In this document: piece by piece, positions 7,919 through 56,941 of the stretch
Layout of the letters: each line of letters starts with the position of its first letter
Numbering within the stretch: the first letter of the stretch is position 1
Assembly (NCBI GenBank): GCA_944349515.1
Contig: CALVNE010000004.1
Location: 2,166 to 66,165, forward strand
Length of the DNA: 64,000 bases
Direction of reading: 5' to 3'
From: an uncultured Clostridia bacterium
GTDB lineage: Bacteria; Bacillota; Clostridia; Christensenellales; UBA1242
Notes under the pieces: model-generated
The model's database searches: none
Told to the model about the DNA's origin: nothing
The model's input: only the letters and a program-made list of their open reading frames with translations
Position numbers and translations under genes: made by a program

Positions 7919-9313
7919 ATGGACGAAAAAGAGGCGCAAGAAGTAGAAATTCGCGAAGATGTGGAAAAAAACGAAGAAAAGCCCGTGGAAGATAAGGGCA
8001 AGTTTTTGGCGCGCCTAAAAGAAAAAAGAGCAAAGAAAAAAGAAGAAAAAATTAAAGAATTTAAAAAGCAAGACGACGAAAAAAAGGAAGTTGTTGAGGA
8101 AAAACTTGAAGAAGTAAATAAAGAAGTTAAAAAGGTCAACACAAAAAAACAAAAAATAATCAACTTTTGCTTTCTTATCTTCAATATCGCGCTTGTTGTT
8201 GGCATTCTCCTTTGGAATTTGCTTGGCTCCGATGAAGGCTTCACTCCGCTTTCACAACTAGATATACATTGGGTATTTATGCTAGTTTATGTTCTCTTTA
8301 TCTTTTTGGCATTCATGTGCCACGTTTTTTGTGTGCACAGAATGATATACCGAAAAACCTTTAAGTCGCGTTGGATTTTGACATATAAGTCACAAGCAAT
8401 TTGCCGATATTATGACGATATCACGCCACTTGCTGCCGGTGGGCAGGCGTTTATGACCTCATATTTAATAAACCGTGATGTGCCGGCGTCAACCGCGCTT
8501 TCCATTCCACTTGCCAAACTTGTTTTTCAAGACATTGTTTGGGTGATTGTCTGCTTGGTCTGCCTTATTTGTGCAAGTTTTAATCCGGCGCTTCAAGGTT
8601 TTACTTTCATTTCGGTGACAAGTATTGTTGGTTTAGTTTTGTCGCTCGGCATGATTGCTGCAATTCTATTTTTGTCGCTTTCGAAGCACGGCAAAAAGGT
8701 GATAGAGTGGCTTTTAAAACTGCTAAATAAAATGCACCTTATCAAAAACTATGAAAAAAAATATCAAAGTATCATGAAAACGGTGGACGATTACCAAGCG
8801 ATAATGCGCGAATATAGCCGTTCGTTTTGGGATATTGTCTATCAAATGGTGCTGGTGGCCATGTCGAATATCATCACAAAATCTCTGCCGTTTTTCATAT
8901 ACTGCATCTTTAAGGGCTTTCCGGCAACCGGCGCGGGCGAACTTTACTCCACCTTTTTCATGGCGGCGGCGCTTATTGAACTATCGTCAAGTTTTATCCC
9001 CCTTCCGGGCGGTTCCGGCATGAACGAAATCACCTTCACGATCATTTTCAGCAATATCGGCGGGCTTGGCGGTGAGACCTTTTGGGCGCTGCTGCTTTGG
9101 AGATTTGCCACCTATTACTTCTACCTATTGCAAGGTATTGTCATCATCGTCTACGACACAGTATATGGAAACAAAAAATGGCAATGGACGAAAAAACGCT
9201 CGGCACTTCAAGAGGAAAGTCAGGCGTTTAAGGCAAAGCAGATTGAAATGTTTAGGTTAGAGAGGAGTAAGCGTCGCAAGCATGAGAAAACTGCAAAAAC
9301 CGTGCATAATTAG
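7919..9313 (+). CDS. integral membrane protein of the lysylphosphatidylglycerol-synthase-TM / flippase-like (UPF0104) type with a Lys/Glu-rich N-terminal extension
   Basis: 464 aa. About 85 N-terminal K/E-rich residues are followed by multiple TM helices. It has the motifs AAGGQAFMTSY and PLPGGSGMNEITF, typical of that family. Confidence 0.6.
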   Translation: MDEKEAQEVEIREDVEKNEEKPVEDKGKFLARLKEKRAKKKEEKIKEFKKQDDEKKEVVEEKLEEVNKEVKKVNTKKQKIINFCFLIFNIALVVGILLWNLLGSDEGFTPLSQLDIHWVFMLVYVLFIFLAFMCHVFCVHRMIYRKTFKSRWILTYKSQAICRYYDDITPLAAGGQAFMTSYLINRDVPASTALSIPLAKLVFQDIVWVIVCLVCLICASFNPALQGFTFISVTSIVGLVLSLGMIAAILFLSLSKHGKKVIEWLLKLLNKMHLIKNYEKKYQSIMKTVDDYQAIMREYSRSFWDIVYQMVLVAMSNIITKSLPFFIYCIFKGFPATGAGELYSTFFMAAALIELSSSFIPLPGGSGMNEITFTIIFSNIGGLGGETFWALLLWRFATYYFYLLQGIVIIVYDTVYGNKKWQWTKKRSALQEESQAFKAKQIEMFRLERSKRRKHEKTAKTVHN

Positions 9314-11761: not shown

Positions 11762-11992
11762 ATGATAATAGAAAAAGTTAAAGAGTTGCTTGCAGAACAA
11801 CTTGGAATTGACGCCGGCACTATCGCTGACGAAGCCAATATTTTGGAGGATCTTGGGGCTGACTCGCTGGATATCATTGAAATGTTGATGACGCTTGAAG
11901 ACGAGTACGGCATAACAATCCCAGACGACAAAATCAATCAAGTTAAAACTGTTAAGCAAGTTGCAGAACTCATTGAAGAGTGCAAAAAGTAG
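11762..11992 (+). CDS. acpP: acyl carrier protein
   Basis: 76 aa. Has the phosphopantetheine-attachment motif LGADSLDIIEM. SD is GGAGG. Confidence 0.9.
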   Translation: MIIEKVKELLAEQLGIDAGTIADEANILEDLGADSLDIIEMLMTLEDEYGITIPDDKINQVKTVKQVAELIEECKK

Positions 11993-12051
11993 ACAAGTTT
12001 TATCATATTTCGACAAATTCTCTCATATTTTTTATATGGGAGGATTTTTTT

Positions 12052-12309
12052 ATGAAGCCATATATCGAAAGTCGCACGCGAGAACTTGGAGAATATGTCT
12101 ACCAAACTCACGATACCATAAGGGAGAGCGCAAAAAAATTTAACCTCTCTAAAAGCACCGTGCATTATGATTTGTCAAATAGATTAAAAAGGGTGGATGC
12201 CGAACTTTATAAGGAGGTCAAAAAAATTTTGGATTTGCACTTTTTGGAGAAGCACATAAGGGGTGGAGAGTCGACTAAATTGAAATATCAAAATGGCAAA
12301 AATAAATAA
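12052..12309 (+). CDS. spoIIID: stage III sporulation protein D (mother-cell transcription factor)
   Basis: ATG at 12052 preceded by GGGAGGA. MKPYIESRTRELGEYV...SKSTVHYDL...IRGGESTKLKYQ closely parallels B. subtilis SpoIIID. The track's upstream extension from 11980 is rejected. Confidence 0.85.
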   Translation: MKPYIESRTRELGEYVYQTHDTIRESAKKFNLSKSTVHYDLSNRLKRVDAELYKEVKKILDLHFLEKHIRGGESTKLKYQNGKNK

Positions 12310-40808: not shown

Positions 40809-41671
40809 AAATTTTAGTTTTGTGTAGCGGTGGCGATGCACCAGGGATGAACCGATTTGTCTATACGCTTTCAAAAAATTTTGAAGATGTCTACTATGCC
40901 TACAAGGGCTTCAAAGGGCTTGTGGAAGGCGACATACGAAAATTAGAAAAGGCCGAAATTGAAAAGGTTAAGGACGAGGCTGGCGCATACATCCGTTCTT
41001 CTCGCTATCCAGAGTTCAAAGAGAAAAAATACTTTTTGAAAGGGCTTAAAAATGCACTTAAATTTGATGTGACAGTTGTGCTTGGTGGCAACGGCAGTCA
41101 AAAGGGCGCAAAGGAACTTAGAAATAATGGTGCAAATGTGCTTTTCGTGCCAGCGACCATTGATAACGATGTGGAAGGGGCGGAATACAGCATGGGCTTT
41201 GACACGGCAGTCTATCAAGGCGTCTACACCGTCGAAAATTCCATGCCAAGTTTTCACACCTTTTCCAAAACCTGTCTATATAAGGTTATGGGAAGGTATT
41301 GCCCGAAGATTGCTGAGGCGGTTTTTGAAAAGACGAATGCCGATTATCTCATTGCCAGCGAAAGCGATTTAAAATATTCAAAGATTAAAAAGATAATCAA
41401 AGAGAATGAAAAAAAAGACAAAGGCACGGCAATCATCGTGAAAGAAAAAATCATAGATATGGACGAACTAAAAAATAAACTTGAAGCATATCCAACTCAA
41501 ATTCGCGTGCAGACAGTTGGCTACTTGCAACGTGGTGGAAAGCCTACAAAGACGGAACTCAAAAAAGCCGACCAAATTGCAAATCAAACCTCAAAATTAA
41601 TTAAAGCGCAAAACTTTGGAAATTCAGTTATGTTTGAAAAAATAGAAAAAATCGCCGTAAAACCGCTTTAA
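40805..41671 (+). CDS. pfkA: 6-phosphofructokinase-family protein (short, divergent)
   Basis: Motifs GGDAPGMN, PATIDND, MGR and GYLQRGG are present. GGDGS reads GGNGS. 288 aa. ATGA overlap with dnaE. Confidence 0.7.
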   Translation: MKILVLCSGGDAPGMNRFVYTLSKNFEDVYYAYKGFKGLVEGDIRKLEKAEIEKVKDEAGAYIRSSRYPEFKEKKYFLKGLKNALKFDVTVVLGGNGSQKGAKELRNNGANVLFVPATIDNDVEGAEYSMGFDTAVYQGVYTVENSMPSFHTFSKTCLYKVMGRYCPKIAEAVFEKTNADYLIASESDLKYSKIKKIIKENEKKDKGTAIIVKEKIIDMDELKNKLEAYPTQIRVQTVGYLQRGGKPTKTELKKADQIANQTSKLIKAQNFGNSVMFEKIEKIAVKPL

Positions 41672-41702
41672 AGCTTAATAATTTAGCTAAAATAATAAAA
41701 AG

Positions 41703-41753
41703 TGTGAAACAAAATTGCCAAAAATTGCATAAAATGTTTCACATTTTTATTTT
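41703..41753. repeat. repeat A, copy 1: terminator-like long hairpin element
   Basis: GTGAAACAAAATTGCCAAAAATTGCATAAAATGTTTCACATTTTTATTTTA. GTGAAACA pairs with TGTTTCAC. A near-identical element lies at 43398-43448. It sits between the pfkA stop and the stop of the convergent HTH gene. Confidence 0.7.
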
Positions 41754-41967
41754 AATATATAAAAAGGTCTTCATAGTTTATTTTTGTTACTTTTGATATT
41801 CGCACGAGATAATAAAGCGAAACGCTTTTATTATTTAAAATTTTTCTTAGTATTCTTTCGTCAATGGCGCAGTGTTTAGCAAAGGTTGTTGTATTATAAC
41901 CATTTTCTTCCATATATTCTTTAATTTTGTCAGTATTATAAACTATTTCATATTTATCGTCTTTCAT
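41752..41967 (-). CDS. small HTH protein (Cro/CI-like, divergent)
   Basis: 71 aa. SD AAGGAG is the complement of 41974-41979. HTH-like segment TTTFAKHCAIDERILRKILNN. Divergent from the XRE gene across a three-operator region. Confidence 0.6.
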   Translation of the reverse strand: MKDDKYEIVYNTDKIKEYMEENGYNTTTFAKHCAIDERILRKILNNKSVSLYYLVRISKVTKINYEDLFIY

Positions 41968-41987
41968 TTTTTTCTCCTTATTGTTTT

Positions 41988-42060
41988 TTATCTGTTTAGA
42001 TAATTATAATATATATTATCTATTTAGATAATGTCAAGCAAATGTTATCTATTTAGATAA
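41988..42060. promoter_or_regulatory. three palindromic operators TTATCT(A/G)TTTAGATAA
   Basis: Copies at 41988-42003 (one arm mismatch), 42016-42031 and 42045-42060. The 7-bp arms TTATCTA/TAGATAA flank a TT centre. Centre spacing is 28 and 29 bp. They lie between the divergent HTH genes. Confidence 0.75.
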
Positions 42061-42064
42061 TTTA

Positions 42065-42093
42065 TTGTTTTAAATTGTCCATTTGGGTAAAAT
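42065..42093 (+). promoter_or_regulatory. candidate rightward promoter of the XRE gene
   Basis: TTGTTT at 42065-42070, 17-nt spacer, TAAAAT at 42088-42093, directly after operator 3. Confidence 0.4.
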
Positions 42094-42119
42094 ATAAGTA
42101 AACACATGTGGAGAAAAAG

Positions 42120-42332
42120 ATGTCTGTTAGAAAAGAGTTTGCATATAGGCTTAAAGATTTAAGAATGGAAAAAGGCTTGACTTTAAAACAATTAAGTGAA
42201 CATATCGGAGTGAGTTTTAACACCATAAGTCGTTGGGAGCGTGAAGAGCGTGTGCCTAATATTGAAAACATTGTGGCGCTTGCAAAGTTTTTCAAAGTTT
42301 CTGCCGATTATCTTTGTGGCTTAGAGGATTAA
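42120..42332 (+). CDS. XRE-family HTH transcriptional regulator
   Basis: ATG at 42120 after GGAGAA. MSVRKEFAYRLKDLRMEKGLTLKQLSEHIGVSFNTISRWEREERVPNIENIVALAKFFKVSADYLCG is a classic HTH_3/XRE pattern. Confidence 0.85.
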   Translation: MSVRKEFAYRLKDLRMEKGLTLKQLSEHIGVSFNTISRWEREERVPNIENIVALAKFFKVSADYLCGLED

Positions 42333-42347
42333 GTCCTCTTTTATTTT
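42323..42347 (+). terminator. small terminator candidate overlapping the XRE stop codon
   Basis: AGAGGA, loop TTAAG, TCCTCT, followed by TTATTTTT. Confidence 0.4.
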
Positions 42348-42388
42348 TAAAATCTATCGGCAAGTTAATTTTAAAAAATTGCTGGTAT

Positions 42389-42494
42389 TTTTGCCGATAA
42401 GATAAAGAATTTGCAAAAAACACGCAAAAATACCACTTTTTACAAGTTATCGGAAAAAAAATTTAAAATTCTTGTTGCAAAATTGCCGATAATT
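42389..42494. repeat. repeat B, copy 1 (about 105 nt), containing the fic promoter region
   Basis: Aligns by eye at roughly 85 percent identity with 43481-43587. Shared core: CACTTTTTACAAGTTATCGG.AAAAAAAATTTAAAATTCTTG...AAAATTGCCGATA. Confidence 0.7.
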
Positions 42495-42503
42495 TGGTAT
42501 AAT
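42475..42503 (+). promoter_or_regulatory. promoter of the fic gene with a TTGCCGATA box in its spacer
   Basis: TTGCAA at 42475-42480, 17-nt spacer ending TGG, TATAAT at 42498-42503. TTGCCGATA at 42483-42491 lies inside the spacer. Confidence 0.5.
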
Positions 42504-42518
42504 AATTATGAGGTGTGT

Positions 42519-43385
42519 ATGAAATATTTAGGGACAAAGGAAATAAGTAAACTTTGGAAAGTATCAGAAAGGTCAGTGAGAAATTATTGCAGAGAAGGTA
42601 AGGTTGAGGGTGCAGTTTTTGTTGGTAAAACTTGGCAAATACCAGAAAATGCAATGAAGCCTAAGCGTGTTTGTGGCAATAATCTGCTTTTTGTTTTGAA
42701 AGAAGAAAAGAGTATGAAATATAAGGGCGGAATTTATCACAAAACACAAATTGAACTCACTTACAACTCTAACCATATTGAAGGGAGCAGGTTGACCGAA
42801 GAGCAAACACGCCTTATCTTTGAAACGAACACAATCGGCGTTAGTGAAAGTGTCAATGTTGATGATATTATCGAAACGACAAACCATTTTAGATGTGTAG
42901 ATTATATTATAGATAATGCCAGCAAACCACTCACTGAAATGATGATAAAAAAACTGCACTATATGCTTAAATCTGGCACAAGCGATGCTAAAAAAGATTG
43001 GTTTAATGTTGGAGAATACAAAAAATTGCCAAACGAAATTGGCGGTAAGACAACCTGTTTGCCTGAAAATGTGGCAAAAGAGATGAGAAAACTCTTAGAA
43101 AAATATAAAAACGAAAAGACATTTGAAAGTATTGTGGCATTTCATCATGATTTTGAAGGTATACACCCATTTCAAGACGGCAATGGGCGAATAGGTAGGC
43201 TCATCATGTTTAAAGAATGCTTGCACCATAATATTGTGCCTTTCATTATTGACAGCGCGCATAAATTATATTATTATCGAGGGTTAAGTGAATGGGAGAA
43301 TGAGCATGGCTTTTTGATTGAAACTTGTTTGTCTGCGCAAGACACTTACAAAAAATGGTTAGATTATTTTAAAATCAAATATTAA
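42519..43385 (+). CDS. fic: Fic-domain protein (AMPylase-type) with N-terminal HTH and internal inhibitory motif
   Basis: ATG at 42519 after AGGTG; the track's extension from 42411 is rejected. Fic motif HPFQDGNGRIGR matches HxFx(D/E)GNGRxxR. SNHIEG matches (S/T)xxxE(G/N). The N-terminus ISKLWKVSERSVRNYCREGKV is a MerR/excisionase-like HTH. Confidence 0.85.
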   Translation: MKYLGTKEISKLWKVSERSVRNYCREGKVEGAVFVGKTWQIPENAMKPKRVCGNNLLFVLKEEKSMKYKGGIYHKTQIELTYNSNHIEGSRLTEEQTRLIFETNTIGVSESVNVDDIIETTNHFRCVDYIIDNASKPLTEMMIKKLHYMLKSGTSDAKKDWFNVGEYKKLPNEIGGKTTCLPENVAKEMRKLLEKYKNEKTFESIVAFHHDFEGIHPFQDGNGRIGRLIMFKECLHHNIVPFIIDSAHKLYYYRGLSEWENEHGFLIETCLSAQDTYKKWLDYFKIKY

Positions 43386-43397
43386 AAACATAAAAAT

Positions 43398-43448
43398 GTG
43401 AAACAAAACAAGCAAAATTTGCAGAAAATGTTTCACATTTTTATTTTA
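43398..43448. repeat. repeat A, copy 2
   Basis: GTGAAACAAAACAAGCAAAATTTGCAGAAAATGTTTCACATTTTTATTTTA lies directly after the fic stop. The extended stem TAAAAATGTGAAACA/TGTTTCACATTTTTA is 15 bp. Confidence 0.7.
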
Positions 43449-43480
43449 TAGGCAAAGTGATTTGAAAAAATTACAGAAAA

Positions 43481-43587
43481 TATTGCCGATAGGGCAGAAA
43501 TCTGCAAAAAAACACGTCAAAAAGCCACTTTTTACAAGTTATCGGCAAAAAAAATTTAAAATTCTTGCTCTAAAATTGCCGATAGGT
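43481..43587. repeat. repeat B, copy 2 (lacks the -10 element of copy 1)
   Basis: See copy 1. It ends at the stop codon of the convergent gene 43588-44307. Confidence 0.7.
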
Positions 43588-44307
43588 TTAGACTTCTATG
43601 ATTAGTTTTGTATAGGAGTATTTGATTTGGGCGGAGAGGTTGCGGTCTTGGGTGGAGTTTGTAAGGTCGAGCAAAATTTCATTTATCTTTACAAAGCTCG
43701 TGCGCATATTTGCGATGTCGCTGTTGGTGTTGACTTTAAAGAGCGTTTCAAAGTTGTTCTTTTTTGTTAAAAAGTTGGAATATACTTCGTTGATTTTGAG
43801 TTTTGCGGTCACTTCGTCGGTTACACCTGTGTCAAGGCTGACCGTGATATCGTAAAGGCTTTGAAAAACGCTGTCGGCAACGGCTAAACTTTCCTTTAAC
43901 ACATTTTCTTCACTTTCGGAAAAGTTTCCTTCAAGGATTATGCTAGGCTTTGTCAGTTTTAATATTTCCGCTTCAATGCCGTTGGTCTTTAGGTTGCTTT
44001 TTACAAGTTCCGCGTCGTTGTTATTTTTGTAGCAACTTGCAATGATATGGTAGGCGTCATCGTTTTCGTAGATATATAAGCCGAAATTGGTGTCCGAGAA
44101 ATTTTCTAGTTCATTTTCGGCTTTTTCCAAACTTTCGGCGGAGTAGACGGAGAGAAGATAGTAGGTGTTTTGTCCGCTTTCCACCTTTTGCGCCACTTGA
44201 AAAAGATTGGCGGAAACGATAAAAGTGGAGAGTAAGTATCCAATGGAAACACACGTCAAGAGGGCTAAAACCACCGAAAAAGTTGCAAAATACGGAAATT
44301 TTTTCAT
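43588..44307 (-). CDS. membrane-anchored protein with SPOR-like domain
   Basis: 239 aa with an N-terminal TM. YYLLSVYSAESLEKAENELENF...YHIIASCYKNNNDAELVKSNLKTNGIEAEILKL fits the SPOR repeat pattern. Confidence 0.5.
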   Translation of the reverse strand: MKKFPYFATFSVVLALLTCVSIGYLLSTFIVSANLFQVAQKVESGQNTYYLLSVYSAESLEKAENELENFSDTNFGLYIYENDDAYHIIASCYKNNNDAELVKSNLKTNGIEAEILKLTKPSIILEGNFSESEENVLKESLAVADSVFQSLYDITVSLDTGVTDEVTAKLKINEVYSNFLTKKNNFETLFKVNTNSDIANMRTSFVKINEILLDLTNSTQDRNLSAQIKYSYTKLIIEV

Positions 44308-52407: not shown

Positions 52408-53127
52408 TCACTTTTTCTTCTTTTTGTTTTTCATAAAGAGTAGCGCCATGATTATTCCTATGCAGGCAATCGCAATCGTAACGGCGTAGATGATGAGTGG
52501 ATTGACGCCGTCAGGAGCAACCGTGTCGGTCAAAACATAGCCGTATTGCAGAGAGTTCTCTCTTTGGTAGGCGATAGGGGTAAACTCCAAATCTTTGTTG
52601 TAGCCTTCATAGAGATAGACACGCTCGCCTTTTTCGATTTCAATCTCGCTTTCAGTTATCGTTTCGCCGTTTAGAAGATATAGTTTTGTGTTAGAGTTAA
52701 TGGAGGCGTTGTAGGCGGGGTAGGTTTCAATATCACTTCCACCGAGTGCCACAAAGTCGGAAAAGATGTAGGCGGAAGGGAGTTGCTCTCCAGCGTAACC
52801 ATCCACCTTGTAAAAAATCATGCCATAACTATCCGCATATTCGGTGGGCGCGCCTTTTGTCAACTCTAAACTTAGCTCGTCTTTGTGAGCAATTCTCAGT
52901 GGCTCGCCGTTTTCGCCAACCACTTTTTGCGAAGTGAACGCAGGCGCTTCATAAAGATAGCAAAAGTTGGCAGTGCATATGTACACTTGTTCATTCTCGG
53001 CTTGCACACCACTTGCCGGCGCAAAAAAAACGCCCAGCAAAAGTACTGCCGACATCAAAAACATCAGCAAAAACTTGCCTATGATCCCTTCGCACTGAAA
53101 GAATGAAACCTCGCCAAACCTTTTCAT
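52408..53127 (-). CDS. membrane protein with two SH3b-like segments and a C-terminal TM plus poly-Lys tail
   Basis: 239 aa with an N-terminal signal/TM (FLLMFLMSAVLLLGVFFAPASG), a C-terminal TM (LIIYAVTIAIACIGIIMALLF) and KNKKKKK. The SH3b call is weak. Confidence 0.5.
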   Translation of the reverse strand: MKRFGEVSFFQCEGIIGKFLLMFLMSAVLLLGVFFAPASGVQAENEQVYICTANFCYLYEAPAFTSQKVVGENGEPLRIAHKDELSLELTKGAPTEYADSYGMIFYKVDGYAGEQLPSAYIFSDFVALGGSDIETYPAYNASINSNTKLYLLNGETITESEIEIEKGERVYLYEGYNKDLEFTPIAYQRENSLQYGYVLTDTVAPDGVNPLIIYAVTIAIACIGIIMALLFMKNKKKKK

Positions 53128-53162: not shown

Positions 53163-53248
53163 GCAAAGTTTAGTTTTAGCACGAAAAAGATTTAAAATCA
53201 TTTTTTTGATTTTGTTATATAAAATATTTTTGTTTAATAAAATACAAT

Positions 53249-53464
53249 ATGAAATTTTTAACAATAAAAAAGGCACATTGTGCCATTCTTTTGGTTATTC
53301 TAGTTGCAATCTGTTTGATTGTCGGCGTTTGCTATGCGGCTAGGGCGACGAGTTCGCCGAAGGCACAATACACCATTGTGATTGACGCAGGGCATGGTGG
53401 AGTAGATGTCAAGTTAGGACAGTATATTTTAAATCCTAAAAGTCAATTCTTACATATTTTTTAG
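53249..53464 (+). pseudogene. 5' fragment of a cwlD-type N-acetylmuramoyl-L-alanine amidase gene
   Basis: The first 51 codons (MKFLTIKK...YTIVIDAGHGG) parallel the intact cwlD at 56261. Similarity ends at about 53401, and 20 unrelated codons follow before the stop. Confidence 0.7.
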
Positions 53465-53507
53465 GTATAAGAAAAAAGCATATCATTTGATATTCTTTAA
53501 TTAAGTT

Positions 53508-54539
53508 TTATTGTAGCCAATCTCTTTCGGTAGTTTCTTCCCATATATCTTTTAAAAGTTTACCATCAATTTTAGCATTGTTTATAAAATCTTCCTTTGT
53601 TTTGAATGTTTGCAAATGCCCACCATTAAAATCATTCATTTTAATGATTTCTTTGTTTTCATCGGATGTGAGAATTAGCTCGTAGTATATATTTTTGTAT
53701 TTAAATTGAACTTCGCTATACACATATAATGCTTCGATAAAATCTTCTAGGTCAGGTTCAAAAGGCTTATATTCACTGTATAATTTTTTCGCTTTGTTTA
53801 GTGAGATAAGATTTGGGTAGATAACTCTGTTTTTAAATTTATTTGCAAATTTATCAAATTTCCAACCGCAGTTTTCGCACTCGCCGTTTCCGAATTGGTC
53901 TTTTAGACATTTATTTCCGCAAACAGGGCACTTTATTTTGTATTTTCTTTTGAAAGTGCTATCTTTTCCGCAAATTAGGCAAGCGCCATTATAAGTATCA
54001 ACCGTTATATAGTGTCCGCAGTCGCATTTGTAATTTGCCATTGAAAAACTTTGAGATGGCTTTTCTGTTAGACTTTCTACTACATTAAAAATCTGTTCGA
54101 GATTATCAAAGTCCGCATAGATAATAAATTTTGTATCTTTTGATTTTTCGATGTTGTTTTTTGTTTCTTTTAAATCTTCAGAGTTATAAAGTTCTTGCTG
54201 ATAATTGTATCCATATATAAGATATTTGAGATTTGCAAAAACTTTCAAATTAAGCGATAAAAGTTCCCCTTTATTTGGGTAGAGTTTTATGTAACCAATA
54301 TAGTTTTTGTTCGTATAGACATCAAAAAAAGTTTCAGTTTTTATTCCTTTCTGTTTGAAGCGGATAATAGGAATCGGATATAATTCATTTGTAAATTGCC
54401 CACCTATTTTTATTCTATGCCCATAATGAAAATCTAACGCATGGTCGACACAATTTTTGCTAAGAAATTTTGACATTTTTTCCATTTTTTCAAATGCAGA
54501 TGCATAAATTTTGTTTAAATTTTTAACAGTTTTTCTCAT
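53508..54539 (-). CDS. hypothetical protein with central zinc ribbons including a CPCC-type Cys-rich domain
   Basis: 343 aa. Contains YKCDCGH...CLICG and KCPVCGNKCL...GECENCGWKFD...ISLNKAKKLY. The region is AT-rich. Confidence 0.6.
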   Translation of the reverse strand: MRKTVKNLNKIYASAFEKMEKMSKFLSKNCVDHALDFHYGHRIKIGGQFTNELYPIPIIRFKQKGIKTETFFDVYTNKNYIGYIKLYPNKGELLSLNLKVFANLKYLIYGYNYQQELYNSEDLKETKNNIEKSKDTKFIIYADFDNLEQIFNVVESLTEKPSQSFSMANYKCDCGHYITVDTYNGACLICGKDSTFKRKYKIKCPVCGNKCLKDQFGNGECENCGWKFDKFANKFKNRVIYPNLISLNKAKKLYSEYKPFEPDLEDFIEALYVYSEVQFKYKNIYYELILTSDENKEIIKMNDFNGGHLQTFKTKEDFINNAKIDGKLLKDIWEETTERDWLQ

Positions 54540-54546
54540 GTTTTTG

Positions 54547-54555
54547 ATTATATCA
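54547..54555 (-). promoter_or_regulatory. extended -10 (TGaTATAAT on the minus strand) 7 nt from the ATG at 54539 (leaderless candidate)
   Basis: The complement of 54547-54555 reads TGATATAAT, followed by CAAAAAC and the ATG. Confidence 0.4.
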
Positions 54556-54620
54556 TATTATTTTATTATTTAAAACAAATTTTCGCTCTAAATCATCTTT
54601 AAACCAAAACATTGTTTAAT

Positions 54621-54640
54621 ATGAAATTCTTAACAATAAA
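54621..54640 (+). repeat. isolated 20-nt copy of the cwlD start (ATGAAATTCTTAACAATAAA)
   Basis: Identical to 56261-56280 and 19/20 to 53249-53268. It is preceded by TTGTTTAAT, which also occurs upstream of copy 1. Confidence 0.75.
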
Positions 54641-54797
54641 TTAACTACGTCATTCTTTGAAATTTATGTCATATAAACTTGAATTTGCAAAAAATGTGAC
54701 TTAATATATTTCTATAAAAGTTTGTGAGAAGATTCTTTACAAACTTTTTTGTTAAAAGTCGAAAATTTTTATTAAAATAAGGAGAAAAGATGATATA

Positions 54798-55139
54798 ATG
54801 GAAAAAGGACCGAGTGAATACGCTGATAATTGGACATCACCTGAAAATGAAGTAGAACACTTTAAGCATGCAAAAGAATTTAATTTAAATCCATATGATT
54901 ATTCCGAAAGTGCGAAAAGATTTAAGGAAAATGAAGATGAAGATAATTTAATTTTTAAAACAGAGGATGGTACTACTTACAAATATAATGAAAAAACAAA
55001 AGAATTCATTATTATATCAAAAAACGGAAAAATTGTTACATACTTTAGAACGAGTTTAAGATATTTTTTGAAATTATTTAATGATTTAAATGGGAAATGG
55101 ATACAAGGAGGGAAATATGAGTTTATCCAACAAGAATAA
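54798..55139 (+). CDS. hypothetical small acidic protein
   Basis: 113 aa. AAGGAG lies upstream, and a 2-codon mini-ORF (ATG ATA TAA) overlaps the start. No family assigned. Confidence 0.5.
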   Translation: MEKGPSEYADNWTSPENEVEHFKHAKEFNLNPYDYSESAKRFKENEDEDNLIFKTEDGTTYKYNEKTKEFIIISKNGKIVTYFRTSLRYFLKLFNDLNGKWIQGGKYEFIQQE

Positions 55140-55443
55140 GAATCACCCGCATAAATGCAAAGTTTGTGGTTTGAGCGATATAGAGCATGCATTTGCAATA
55201 TGTAGAGTTTGTGGCTGGGAAGATGATATTATCCAAAACAATGATAAAGATTATATTGGTGGTGCGAACAATATGAGTTTCAATCAATATAAAAAATTTT
55301 GGAAAGAAAATAAAGAAGATATTTTGAAAAATCATAAGGACGACCTATTTTATGTTTATGAAAAAGCAGATAAATTTTACAAACAAAATTTCGAAGAAAG
55401 CAATTTGAAATATTTAAGCGAAATTGAGCCTGATTATGAATGA
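55117..55443 (+). CDS. CPCC-family cysteine-rich protein
   Basis: ATG at 55117 after GGAGGG. HKCKVCG...AICRVCGWEDDIIQNNDKDYIGGANNMSFNQYKKFW fits the CPCC Cys-rich domain pattern (CxxC...CxxCxWEDD...GGAN). Confidence 0.65.
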   Translation: MSLSNKNKNHPHKCKVCGLSDIEHAFAICRVCGWEDDIIQNNDKDYIGGANNMSFNQYKKFWKENKEDILKNHKDDLFYVYEKADKFYKQNFEESNLKYLSEIEPDYE

Positions 55444-56212
55444 ATTAAAACTTACAATGGAATTACTCCCAAAAGGCGCTTGGGGGAATGATTTAAGTAT
55501 AATATTGCCTAAAAAAGATTGGAATATATTAAGAGAGTTTGCTTTAAAAAGAGCAAATGGAAAATGTGAAGTATGTGGATATGAAAGCGACGACCTTGAT
55601 GTTCACGAAGAATGGGAATTTGATATTAAAAATAAAACTCAAACTTTAAAGGATATAATCGCAATTTGCAGTAGTTGTCATGGTGTAAAGCATTTCAGAA
55701 ATTCAAGACGAATAGGATTTGAAGAAGAAGCGAAAAAGCATTTTATGGAAGTTAATGATTGTAATGAATTTGAATTTGCTGCTCATTCAACTCAGGCAGA
55801 AATTTTATTCAATGAAAGAAATGAAATATATTTTTGGAAGATGAAATTAAATTTATTAAAGTTTGGTGGAGAAGAAATCTCCATTCCAGATATAACAAGG
55901 TTAAAAATTTTGAATCCATATAGTGAAAACGATTTAGAAGATTTGAAAAATAAAATTAACTTATTGCCTAGAATTTTAAATATAGAAGTAAATAATTATT
56001 CAGGAGACATAATTGTTAAAAGTGATATTTCTAATAAAATAGTTTGGTTTGTTGATAATAAAATAGCAAAAACTCAGTTTAATTTTGCACATATATTAAA
56101 ATCAGTTTTTTCTGTCGTTGGGTTAAAAGGTGAAAATGTGTATTTTAAACTATATGGGGATTATGGAGAAATAAATTCAAAAGTATTTAAGCTAGAAAAT
56201 TGGGGATATTAA
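55436..56212 (+). CDS. HNH-like (CxxC...H...CxxCH) zinc-finger nuclease-type protein
   Basis: ATG at 55436 overlaps the previous stop (TATGAATGA). Contains GKCEVCGYESDDLDVHEEWEF...ICSSCHGVKH. The C-terminal 130 aa are unassigned. Confidence 0.5.
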   Translation: MNELKLTMELLPKGAWGNDLSIILPKKDWNILREFALKRANGKCEVCGYESDDLDVHEEWEFDIKNKTQTLKDIIAICSSCHGVKHFRNSRRIGFEEEAKKHFMEVNDCNEFEFAAHSTQAEILFNERNEIYFWKMKLNLLKFGGEEISIPDITRLKILNPYSENDLEDLKNKINLLPRILNIEVNNYSGDIIVKSDISNKIVWFVDNKIAKTQFNFAHILKSVFSVVGLKGENVYFKLYGDYGEINSKVFKLENWGY

Positions 56213-56260
56213 TATCCTCTTTTTTGTTATAAAAAGTAAAGAATAAAAATATGTTATTAT

Positions 56261-56941
56261 ATGAAATTCTTAACAATAAAAAAGCGCACTATATTGTTTG
56301 TTTTGACTGCGGTTATTTTGCTCTTCTCGGTCATTGGAGCCTGCTTTGTCATCCAAGCATCTTCGCCAAAGGCATTATACACCATTGTGATTGACGCGGG
56401 GCATGGCGGGCGTGACGGCGGTGCAGTGGGCAGCACTGGGGTGACAGAGAGTGAACTAAATTTAGAGTTTAGTTTGGAATTGAAAGAATTGTGCGAGGAG
56501 TATGGTTTTAAAGTGGTGCTGACGCGCAAGGATATGAACGGGCTATATTCGCTTTTTGCCACCAACAAGAAGAAGAGCGAGATGAAAAAGCGCCAAGAGA
56601 TTATTGAAAAGGCAAAGCCAGACGTGGTGGTCAGCATACACATGAACAGTTTTTCGTCTTCATCCAGTGGGGCACAGTGCTTTTATGCGAGTGGTAATGA
56701 GGCTGGAGAAAAACTTGCAACAAGAGTGCAGCAGGCGTTGTCAACCGAGATTGAGCATACCGGCACAACTGCAAAGGTCGGCGATTTCTATGTGCTTAAT
56801 TGCACAGATTACGCCAGTGTTTTGGTGGAGTGCGGATTTCTTTCTAACCCAGAAGAAGAACAAAAACTTTGCGACGAAGAATATCAAACCAACTTTTGCC
56901 GAACGCTTTTATATGGCATATTGGATTATTTTGAGATGTGA
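56261..56941 (+). CDS. cwlD: N-acetylmuramoyl-L-alanine amidase, CwlD-like (germination-specific type)
   Basis: 226 aa with an N-terminal TM. Amidase_3 motifs are present: IDAGHGGRDGGAVG, SIHMNS and ECGFLSNPEE. Confidence 0.8.
   Translation: MKFLTIKKRTILFVLTAVILLFSVIGACFVIQASSPKALYTIVIDAGHGGRDGGAVGSTGVTESELNLEFSLELKELCEEYGFKVVLTRKDMNGLYSLFATNKKKSEMKKRQEIIEKAKPDVVVSIHMNSFSSSSSGAQCFYASGNEAGEKLATRVQQALSTEIEHTGTTAKVGDFYVLNCTDYASVLVECGFLSNPEEEQKLCDEEYQTNFCRTLLYGILDYFEM

Follow-up and report, generated by a model that had tools for sequence, protein, structure and literature searches.

A two-cassette array at the 5′ end of cwlD in an uncultured Clostridia bacterium and its likely origin from a lineage of paired large serine recombinases

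Background

Accretion of cis-mobilizable elements (CIMEs), as described for the integrative and conjugative elements (ICEs) ICESt1 and ICESt3 of Streptococcus thermophilus, yields tandem units that lack a recombinase, share one chromosomal site and keep the recombination site (PMC5704250). An arrangement with the same properties is found at the 5′ end of the cwlD gene in a stretch of 64,000 nucleotides (nt), hereafter the window, from an uncultured Clostridia bacterium (GenBank assembly GCA_944349515.1, contig CALVNE010000004.1, positions 2,166 to 66,165). The preferred reading, to which we give a probability of roughly 0.6, is that the insert at this site is a stranded array of two cassettes, brought there by site-specific recombination of a lineage of paired large serine recombinases (LSRs) with its attachment site in cwlD. 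The locus was compared with related loci and contigs, which are numbered with the prefix L.

The CIME systems rely on tyrosine integrases, with identical core repeats located in the 3′ ends of their target genes (tRNA or protein-coding). Here the enzymes are a pair of serine recombinases, a protein gene is targeted near its start (codons 50-53), and each unit carries a promoter and about 50 codons. CIMEs keep both attL and attR; the window, in contrast, has an attL-type junction on the left and, as its right boundary, an intact cwlD gene that is attB-like (B-B′, the two host arms joined). Because there is no attR, the insert is not a CIME in the strict sense. One related locus, L033, has the order cassette, attL, ICE and corresponds to a composite of the CIME-ICE type.

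The staphylococcal cassette chromosome elements (SCC, SCCmec) at rlmH (orfX) with CcrAB, and the Enterococcus cassette chromosome, resemble the present system in having two adjacent LSR genes. Other likenesses of SCC are a conserved, housekeeping-type target whose reading frame is kept, tandem arrays that include cassettes without recombinase genes, and cargo rich in conflict and defence genes. SCC cassettes have been excised in several combinations (PMC11470126, PMC12286644, PMC6222049). The SCC site is the 3′ end of rlmH, with a repeat of ~15-20 nt, whereas the site here is at the 5′ end of cwlD, so that every insertion exchanges the promoter, the start codon and the membrane anchor. Identity with SCC was dropped on account of the different target gene and the opposite gene end. 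LSR elements that lie inside a sporulation-related gene and restore its frame by exact joining are exemplified by skin in sigK, SPbeta in spsM and gin in gerE, and two of the related elements (L047 and L049) are like them. For the island of the window a skin-like identity was dropped, as its cwlD ORF is of full length and encodes the entire Amidase_3 domain, and no recombinase gene lies in the island.

The islands at ssrA in Dehalococcoides reportedly carry a serine recombinase and occur as several tandem islands, each leaving a copy of the gene end, and their repeat is said to be a short piece of the 3′ end of the transfer-messenger RNA (tmRNA) gene. They integrate site-specifically at one conserved single-copy gene (PMC3146451), as here. 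Their target is the tmRNA gene, no counterpart of the promoter-plus-5′-coding surrogate is known from that system, and they are the looser parallel. Integron arrays are similar in that small ordered cassettes stand beside one fixed site and their order varies between genomes, and different in that the cassettes here are not promoterless single open reading frames (ORFs) in one orientation. The integron core consensus is GTTRRRY, and the element-derived arm described below contains GTTAGGA, which resembles this core without matching it. A tyrosine recombinase was found neither in the window nor among the Pfam-scanned ORFs of the arrays, and the repeat search revealed no attC-like inverted repeats at cassette ends. 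Identity with integrons was dropped, there being no IntI and no such repeats.

Results and discussion

The cwlD gene and the copies of its 5′ end

The window is the part of the host genome that was visible. Its cwlD gene is an intact ORF of 226 amino acids (aa) on the plus strand (56261-56941), and the product is an Amidase_3 protein (Pfam PF01520, E=7e-44, residues 42-220) with CwlD as its top NCBIfam match (TIGR02883, 184 bits). Since this score is below the equivalog cutoff of 221.6 bits, the protein is named CwlD-like; a look-up of its exact sequence gave no record. The first 20 nt of the gene, ATGAAATTCTTAACAATAAA, are found at 53249 (19/20), 54621 (20/20) and 56261 (20/20); with up to three mismatches allowed, the 64 kb contain no further match, and three matches to this pattern were reached in 0 of 100 shuffles. 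Copy 1 runs on as a cwlD 5′ fragment with 54.7% protein identity to codons 1-52 of the intact gene (tblastn), and its similarity to cwlD ends just past a GG at 53400. The strongest nucleotide direct repeat of the locus (53353-53400 versus 56362-56409; 48 nt, 90% identity, spacing 3009) encodes YTIVIDAGHGG. Copy 2 (54621-54640) retains only the 20-mer and the upstream sequence TTGTTTAAT, and copy 3 heads the intact gene. The inserted unit extends from 53401 to 56409 (3,009 bp) and contains four ORFs, one of 343 aa on the minus strand followed by overlapping ones of 113, 117 and 262 aa on the plus strand. The initial annotation had described the three copies of the 20-mer, the diverged 5′ fragment with its loss of similarity near 53401, the remnant state of copy 2, and an AT-rich island of two modules and four ORFs; the copies and the fragment were confirmed by pattern scan and tblastn, and the island by its GC content (0.22-0.35 versus ~0.42-0.48 in the flanking genes).

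A scan of a genome collection with CwlD yielded 34 loci from uncultured gut Clostridia (Christensenellales or Catabacter-like in the record names), against which the two ends of the island could be compared. On the left, the displaced 5′ end (53249-53400, plus strand; codons 1-50 and GG, delimited by a tblastn comparison with CwlD residues 1-52) forms the B arm, on the host side, of an attL-type junction. It has 79% nucleotide identity to the 5′ end of the gene in a close relative, L002, to which the gene body is ~80% identical, and the 48 nt upstream of it, the native cwlD promoter region (~53200-53248), match the sequence upstream of the intact genes of L002, L009, L010, L014 and L016. On the right, codons 1-50 of the present gene (56261-56409, plus strand) are fused in frame to the resident body with the Amidase_3 domain (56410-56941, plus strand; Pfam PF01520). 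Within this segment, positions 56311-56360 are only 42-52% identical to the close relatives L001 and L002, whose gene bodies match at ~80%, and the gene start and the 60 nt before it are almost the same as at the right-hand end of the corresponding cassette in L027 and L009. These comparisons show the present 5′ end of cwlD, promoter and 50 codons, to be to all appearance imported, and the native one to be displaced. They also support the view of the initial annotation that foreign DNA was inserted in the 5′ end of cwlD and that an intact gene was restored on its right.

Within the displaced fragment, in the AHCA codons, lies a palindrome with a perfect 5-bp stem (GGCACATTGTGCC, 53272-53284); it occurs also in the 5′ segments of L007, L009 (5739), L029 (10204) and L033.

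The recombination junction and its 25-nt arm

The cwlD fragments of the relatives end, in nucleotide alignment, at the GHGG codons and continue with GATGTCAAGTTAGGACAGTA or a near variant, where the intact genes read GAYGGNGGNGC. In the window the corresponding sequence is a non-coding arm of 25 nt, designated P′ (AGTAGATGTCAAGTTAGGACAGTAT, 53401-53425, plus strand), which is identical at 25/25 positions to the arm adjacent to the LSR genes of L033 and has no second copy in the window at up to four mismatches. Across the junctions a 20-nt block of the arm (in the window a single one, 53405-53424) has a mean pairwise identity mostly of 0.7-1.0 and lacks three-base periodicity; codon periodicity is seen in the cwlD sequence on its left, and on its right identity falls to ~0.4. 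Among the relatives the arm always has the orientation of cwlD.

The inferred crossover dinucleotide is the GG with which the last Gly codon of GHGG begins (53399-53400, plus strand; right counterpart 56408-56409). This core was deduced from two complete elements, L047 and L049, in which joining B, GG and B′ restores an open cwlD frame, and it is supported for the window because the repeat spacing of 3009 nt fits; joining 53400 to 56410 would likewise yield an in-frame cwlD. The left boundary is thereby shown to have the composition of an attL-type junction, with native codons 1-50, GG and the 25-nt arm as its putative parts. The initial annotation had likened the locus to tandem cis-mobilizable islands that share att sites; this remains the closest concept, but the att site is not the 20-mer, as the crossover lies ~150 nt further in, and the 20-mer recurs because each cassette carries its own promoter and the first ~50 codons of cwlD.

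Behind the arm, a weak hairpin (AAGCATATCAtttGATATtCTT, 53476-53497, no strand assigned) is, by the junction alignment, the counterpart of a terminator-like hairpin, AAAAAAGCATATCnnTTGATATGCTT, that is conserved at this place in many cassettes; the terminator scan of the window made no call there. Across the whole window no Rfam family attained its gathering threshold, so the arm is not a known RNA. A blastn search of plasmid and phage collections with the junction gave no match.

Paired large serine recombinases and complete elements

The initial annotation had raised the possibility of a recombinase acting in trans, and paired LSRs were identified in relatives. At L033 (contig CAJJUK010000005.1) the cwlD fragment and arm are followed directly by two minus-strand genes for proteins of 545 and 573 aa with 37% mutual identity, which are LSRs because both contain Resolvase, Recombinase, zinc-ribbon (Zn_ribbon_recom) and DUF4368 domains; DUF4368 is present in some LSRs of the lineage. 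Beyond them lie DUF6870, methyltransferases, a primase-type protein and a leucine-rich repeat (LRR) protein, and the element is considered ICE-like because relatives of its backbone carry type IV secretion system (T4SS) genes. The outer recombinase, LSR1, belongs to a clade of orthologues with 50-57% identity. With the exception of L056, every context of an LSR1 orthologue that has a readable end shows the order DUF6870, LSR2, LSR1, cwlD 5′ fragment and arm variant. In addition to L033, the arm is found 50-100 nt from an LSR pair in 13 different junctions on other contigs (L040-L049, L057-L059). The arm variant changes with the LSR lineage, and an identical LSR protein and arm stand beside three different host cwlD genes in three different neighbourhoods (L041-L043). 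The short LSR contigs L056-L059 contributed further attL junctions (not L056) and no right ends.

Two elements are complete: one of ~7 kb in L047 (3860-11840) and one of ~17 kb in L049 (820-18240) that encodes a MobL relaxase. In both, cwlD is truly split, since the far end joins a non-cwlD arm to the gene from codon 53 onward. The attP of ~50 bp is an imperfect inverted repeat with core GG, its half-sites matching at 19/25 positions in L049 and 17/25 in L047, whereas the attB half-sites match at only 6-7/25. When the host arms are rejoined the reading frame is kept, giving DPGHGGMDPGS and DAGHGGEDGGAVG. Of such an attP the window has the P′ half alone (53401-53425). As read from the two sequences, this is standard serine-integrase site anatomy. 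The junctions together show a lineage of paired LSRs whose predicted point of integration is the GG of the cwlD GHGG codons. The two elements are candidates for new intervening elements of sporulation genes; the comparison with skin made in the initial annotation holds for them and fails for the window, where cwlD is intact.

Several other observations were made around these recombinases. L047 lies near spoIIE, and Spo0A and SpoIIE are encoded near related loci. In L056 an LSR1 identical to that of L057 is followed, at 1858-2042, by neither a cwlD fragment nor the arm, and nrdD comes next; the end may have been rearranged, or the element may have another target. A search with a 198-aa backbone protein of L033 reached six contigs (L050-L055) in which the ICE backbone of L033 (T4SS genes, DUF3846, LRR, DUF1281_C, primase and C5 methylase) is accompanied by a 522-aa tyrosine integrase, so that the integration module appears to have been swapped between a tyrosine integrase and DUF6870 plus two LSRs. 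A scan of viral contigs with LSR1 gave no relatives.

Cassette arrays at cwlD in related genomes

By tblastn, about half of the 34 loci have, ahead of the intact gene and always in its orientation, between one and four additional copies of cwlD codons 1-52. Truncated cwlD 5′ fragments with the same arm behind them, one to four per genome, are present in at least 14 related genomes. In nearly all loci the variable region is bounded upstream by the same minus-strand gene (the 239-aa ORF 52408-53127 of the window), which serves as an anchor. In L018 the anchor gene is 271 nt from cwlD, a distance that identifies an empty site; at other loci the interval is of low GC content and holds diverse cargo. 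The types of cargo include CPCC proteins, DUF4417 with HNH, a toxin-like C-terminal fragment, ankyrin and LRR proteins, an mTERF-like protein, and a radical SAM (rSAM) and ATP-grasp pair, and in recombinase-less cassettes at least eight different types of cargo stand directly behind the arm. Cassette order also varies: L013 has rSAM/ATP-grasp, CPCC-345 and mTERF, whereas L029 has mTERF, a 370-aa gene, CPCC-345 and rSAM, and the order of cassettes A and B of the window (described below) is reversed in L009. The relatives, to which the initial annotation had pointed for a check, thus contain an empty site, alternative cargo and different cassette orders.

The arrays are not uniformly well preserved. 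Cargo without a surviving arm is found in L001, L002, L005, L007 and L015, internally deleted fragments in the window (copy 2), in L020 (at 7267) and in L033 (at 8788), and one fragment of L009 looks chimeric, with a breakpoint ~28 nt into cwlD. All junctions of the arrays are of the B-P′ type with one intact gene (B-B′), and there is no P-B′ junction; a search of the arrays for remnants of the P arm (the reverse complement of the distal arm) found only the arms themselves.

In L033 (8760-8810) the leftmost arm follows a 330-aa ORF for a membrane protein-like product and is preceded by only ~11 nt of GHGG-like sequence; it could represent a deleted fragment or insertion at a pseudo-site. Toxin/immunity-like ORF regions were noted in L009, L010, L014 and L016 (~7980-8320), in L040 (11695-11901) and in L043 (11879-12511). 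They contain an ORF of 91-107 aa that starts with MGMCKPSGG and matches the C-terminal end of the phage 'toxin' family phrog_18811, with CPCC proteins following it; L043 has Ntox33 (a weak match) and DUF4279 upstream of cwlD. This cargo resembles orphan toxin and immunity modules as far as family matches can indicate.

Cassettes A and B of the window

The insert of the window is a two-cassette array without a recombinase, probably of passenger cassettes, and has a decayed internal junction. The cargo of cassette A is a gene on the minus strand (53508-54539) whose 343-aa product contains a zinc-ribbon domain of the Cys-rich CPCC type (Pfam PF14206, E=2.9e-8; phrog_3711 and phrog_6332). Homologues of this cassette are present in L033 (86% nucleotide identity), L003, L005, L009, L010, L030, L034, L035 and L037, and in L003, L005, L033, L034, L035 and L037 they lie directly upstream of a cwlD start.

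The decayed junction between A and B (54583-54657, plus strand) consists of the promoter remnant TTGTTTAAT (54612-54620), copy 2 of the 20-mer (54621-54640) and 17 nt of unmatched filler. Homology of cassette A to L033 ends at 54619, and homology of cassette B to L027 and L009 begins at 54658, which in these two is the base right after the arm; therefore, nt 21-~150 of cwlD and the P′ arm have been lost from the window at this junction.

The region of cassette B (54658-56260, plus strand) was delimited with Pfam and PHROG matches, blastn against L027 and a terminator scan. Its three ORFs, all on the plus strand, encode a 113-aa protein of no family (54798-55139), a 117-aa CPCC protein (55090-55443) and an HNH endonuclease of 258-262 aa (258 aa at 55436-56212). 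The 117-aa protein lacks by deletion the DUF4417 domain of its L027 homologue, a 370-aa CPCC-DUF4417 fusion (8056-9168), and the blastn segments that align L027 with the window are separated by a gap of 785 nt; the ~785 nt missing from the gene indicate that cassette B has partly decayed. The terminator scan located a terminator-like hairpin at 56202-56219, ahead of the imported cwlD promoter region. At the start of cassette B, a hairpin with a T-run (54696-54756) is conserved in L009 and L027 and has a sub-threshold Rfam match to STnc390 (27 bits, cutoff 50); it is probably just a terminator.

The four ORFs of the island (two CPCC, an HNH nuclease and one of no family) include no genes for integration or transfer. 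The cargo, with its CPCC proteins, HNH nuclease and truncated CPCC/DUF4417 partner, faintly resembles toxin/immunity or nuclease conflict genes. PADLOC found no defence system among the island proteins, only one weak homing-endonuclease match (E=0.018), and a sequence search of the PDB with the HNH protein gave nothing significant.

Transfer of cassettes between genomes

Among all pairs of L009, L010, L014 and L016, the DUF4417 gene is 92-96% and the HNH gene 80-92% identical in nucleotides, while the cwlD body is 56-62% identical in five of the six pairs (76% between L009 and L010) and the anchor gene 43-62%. Between the window and L027 the figures are 88% for the HNH gene, 57% for the cwlD body and 45% for the anchor, and between the window and L033 they are 86% for cassette A and 51% for the anchor. 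The cwlD 5′ segment adjacent to the cargo in L009, L010, L014 and L016 has 76-85% identity, above the body in five of the six pairs, which places the break in relatedness at the GHGG site. The comparisons show cassettes and adjoining cwlD 5′ segments to be far more alike between genomes than core genes are, a pattern that points to horizontal transfer. With flanks so divergent, homologous recombination between them is implausible, and the constancy of the junction rules out random insertion.

Origin of the array

According to the preferred reading, the cassettes would have been carried as passengers of an LSR-bearing ICE or integrative and mobilizable element (IME), by canonical reactions only. 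An ICE or IME would insert in the intact cwlD of a donor that already holds cassettes, giving the state seen in L033 (cassette A, attL, ICE), and excision from the outer attL would take the cassettes along (cis-mobilization). The composite, once transferred, would integrate in the cwlD of the recipient. When the ICE later excised from the inner attL, the donor's cassettes, promoter and 5′ codons would stay behind, joined to the recipient's gene body, and the recipient's own cwlD 5′ end would remain as a fragment. A small deletion might then have destroyed the internal junction and left copy 2. Precedents are the accretion and cis-mobilization model of CIMEs, in which CIME-ICE composites can move together (PMC5704250), and the Ccr-driven excision of tandem cassettes in all combinations (PMC11470126). 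Mobilization of the recombinase-less cassettes would be, we infer, the means of the horizontal transfer described above. As the window has neither a recombinase nor a P-B′ junction, the array is fixed unless a new element lands in cwlD.

Several points weigh against this reading. LSR and tyrosine-integrase probes found no recombinase in the window, as the initial annotation had stated, and a Pfam summary of 30 other window ORFs has no recombinase among the 25 families listed of 43. The comparators are all metagenome-assembled genomes or metagenome contigs, and the data hold no sign of excision or circles. The ICE of L033 may either split cwlD or bring a 5′ surrogate. An exact scan of viral contigs for the 20-nt arm gave 0 matches, and a scan of public metagenomes with a degenerate pattern of GHGG plus arm gave 5 contigs only, one of which is L033. 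Since the arrays have only B-P′ and B-B′ and no P arm, canonical LSR reactions alone cannot explain the first duplicate of promoter and 5′ codons, nor does the exchange in trans considered next account for it; the simplest guess is that it arose from a single illegitimate repair event.

Alternatively, the cassettes may themselves be recombination substrates in trans, as in integrons or SCC: an LSR pair would recombine a cassette circle (B-P′) with the gene (B-B′), a reaction that regenerates one site of each kind and would allow insertion, excision and reshuffling without an ICE. Arrays of B-P′ sites with one B-B′ are the exact product of such a conservative reaction, many recombinase-less cassettes have an intact P′ arm, directly behind which at least eight different types of cargo stand, genomes differ in the order of their cassettes, and the LSRs are paired, some with DUF4368; the recombinases of SCCmec, moreover, are reported to be active on various site pairings (PMC12286644, PMC11470126). 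Nevertheless, those canonical serine integrases that have been studied do not recombine attL with attB (PMC3783163), the attP of the complete elements (L047 and L049) is an ordinary inverted repeat, and no contig with a circular cassette or an alternative junction was seen, L035 and L037 being linear chromosomal arrangements. We regard this exchange in trans as possible but unlikely. The scheme in which each unit is the immobile scar of a cwlD-splitting ICE or IME is more doubtful still. The gene would have been repaired with a foreign intact cwlD by one homologous and one illegitimate crossover, the trapped element would have decayed, and cassettes would be shared by descent or occasional homologous exchange. 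This would explain the first duplicate of promoter and 5′ codons without non-canonical recombinase chemistry, and it suits the many loci with cargo and no surviving arm as well as the internally deleted fragments listed above. It requires, however, many independent and precise losses of the LSR genes adjacent to the arm, given the at least eight cargo types that abut it; the arm is better conserved than both flanks; and cargo identity of 92-96% against 43-62% in the flanks rules out descent and makes homologous exchange unlikely.

The remaining two explanations are much less probable. Site-specific recombination might be absent altogether, circles with a cwlD 5′ segment being inserted by RecA in the manner of Campbell anywhere in the 150 nt of homology; the repeated 150-nt 5′ segments, promoter regions and 20-mer starts could support such exchange, and the chimeric-looking fragment of L009 might be a trace of it. 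That all fragments stop at the same GG with the same arm next to it, that 13 different junctions lie beside LSR genes, that attP is an imperfect inverted repeat and the B+B′ joins are exact and in frame, and that the 5′ segments of the partners are only ~70-85% identical make this very improbable. At least as hard to credit is a developmental excision of the window island in the manner of skin, or a switch of the CwlD promoter and N-terminal anchor through exchange between the left fragment and the intact gene. Related elements do split cwlD (L047 and L049), sporulation genes occur in the lineage (SpoIIID in the window, Spo0A and SpoIIE near related loci), and the left fragment retains the native promoter. 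With cwlD intact, though, excision would be needless, no recombinase is present in the island or the window, recombination between the direct repeats would delete the island irreversibly and could not act as a switch, and the internal junction has decayed; this explanation is the least probable of all. The passenger origin from an LSR-bearing element is therefore retained as the preferred reading.

Other features of the window

A giant ORF of 6,802 aa (12789-33197, plus strand) has an N-terminal signal or lipoprotein-like start, and its product is probably a huge surface protein. A second patch of low GC content (0.32-0.35) extends from 41000 to 44300 and includes a 324-aa ORF (42411-43385) with the motif HPFQDGNGRIGR. 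The Pfam families of the window include Fic and SpoIIID, in a summary that gives families without ORF names; that the SpoIIID match belongs to the 109-aa ORF 11980-12309 is a guess. SpoIIID fits a lineage that retains sporulation genes.

Conclusions

A literature search, which covered few subscription journals, found no paper on cwlD together with 'serine recombinase', nor one on cwlD and attB in this sense. The new aspects are the target at codons 50-53 of cwlD, the recurrent exchange of the promoter and of the codons for the membrane anchor, arrays with attL-type junctions only, and the occurrence of gene-splitting and gene-preserving outcomes in one recombinase lineage. On this evidence cwlD would be an attachment gene for a paired-LSR lineage on ICE- or IME-like elements, and the elements that split it make cwlD a candidate member of the small group of sporulation genes that mobile elements interrupt. 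A serine-recombinase cassette platform in a sporulation gene, in which each cassette brings a half-site with a spare promoter and 50-codon start and is captured, excised and reshuffled in trans by the paired LSRs, is a speculative extension that we consider rather unlikely; if true, it would be a functional analogue of the integron, built from different enzymes and rewriting the 5′ end of its target gene with each insertion. The attP, the attB and the two recombinases are defined well enough for direct testing, including whether they have the strict site-pair directionality of phage integrases. The same site can apparently also grow an array of recombinase-less cassettes whose own promoter and 5′ codons keep cwlD alive, with chimeric CwlD proteins as the outcome. 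Such arrays would move conflict-type genes between very divergent gut Clostridia, in which the cargo is 88-96% identical and the core genes are only 45-62% identical.

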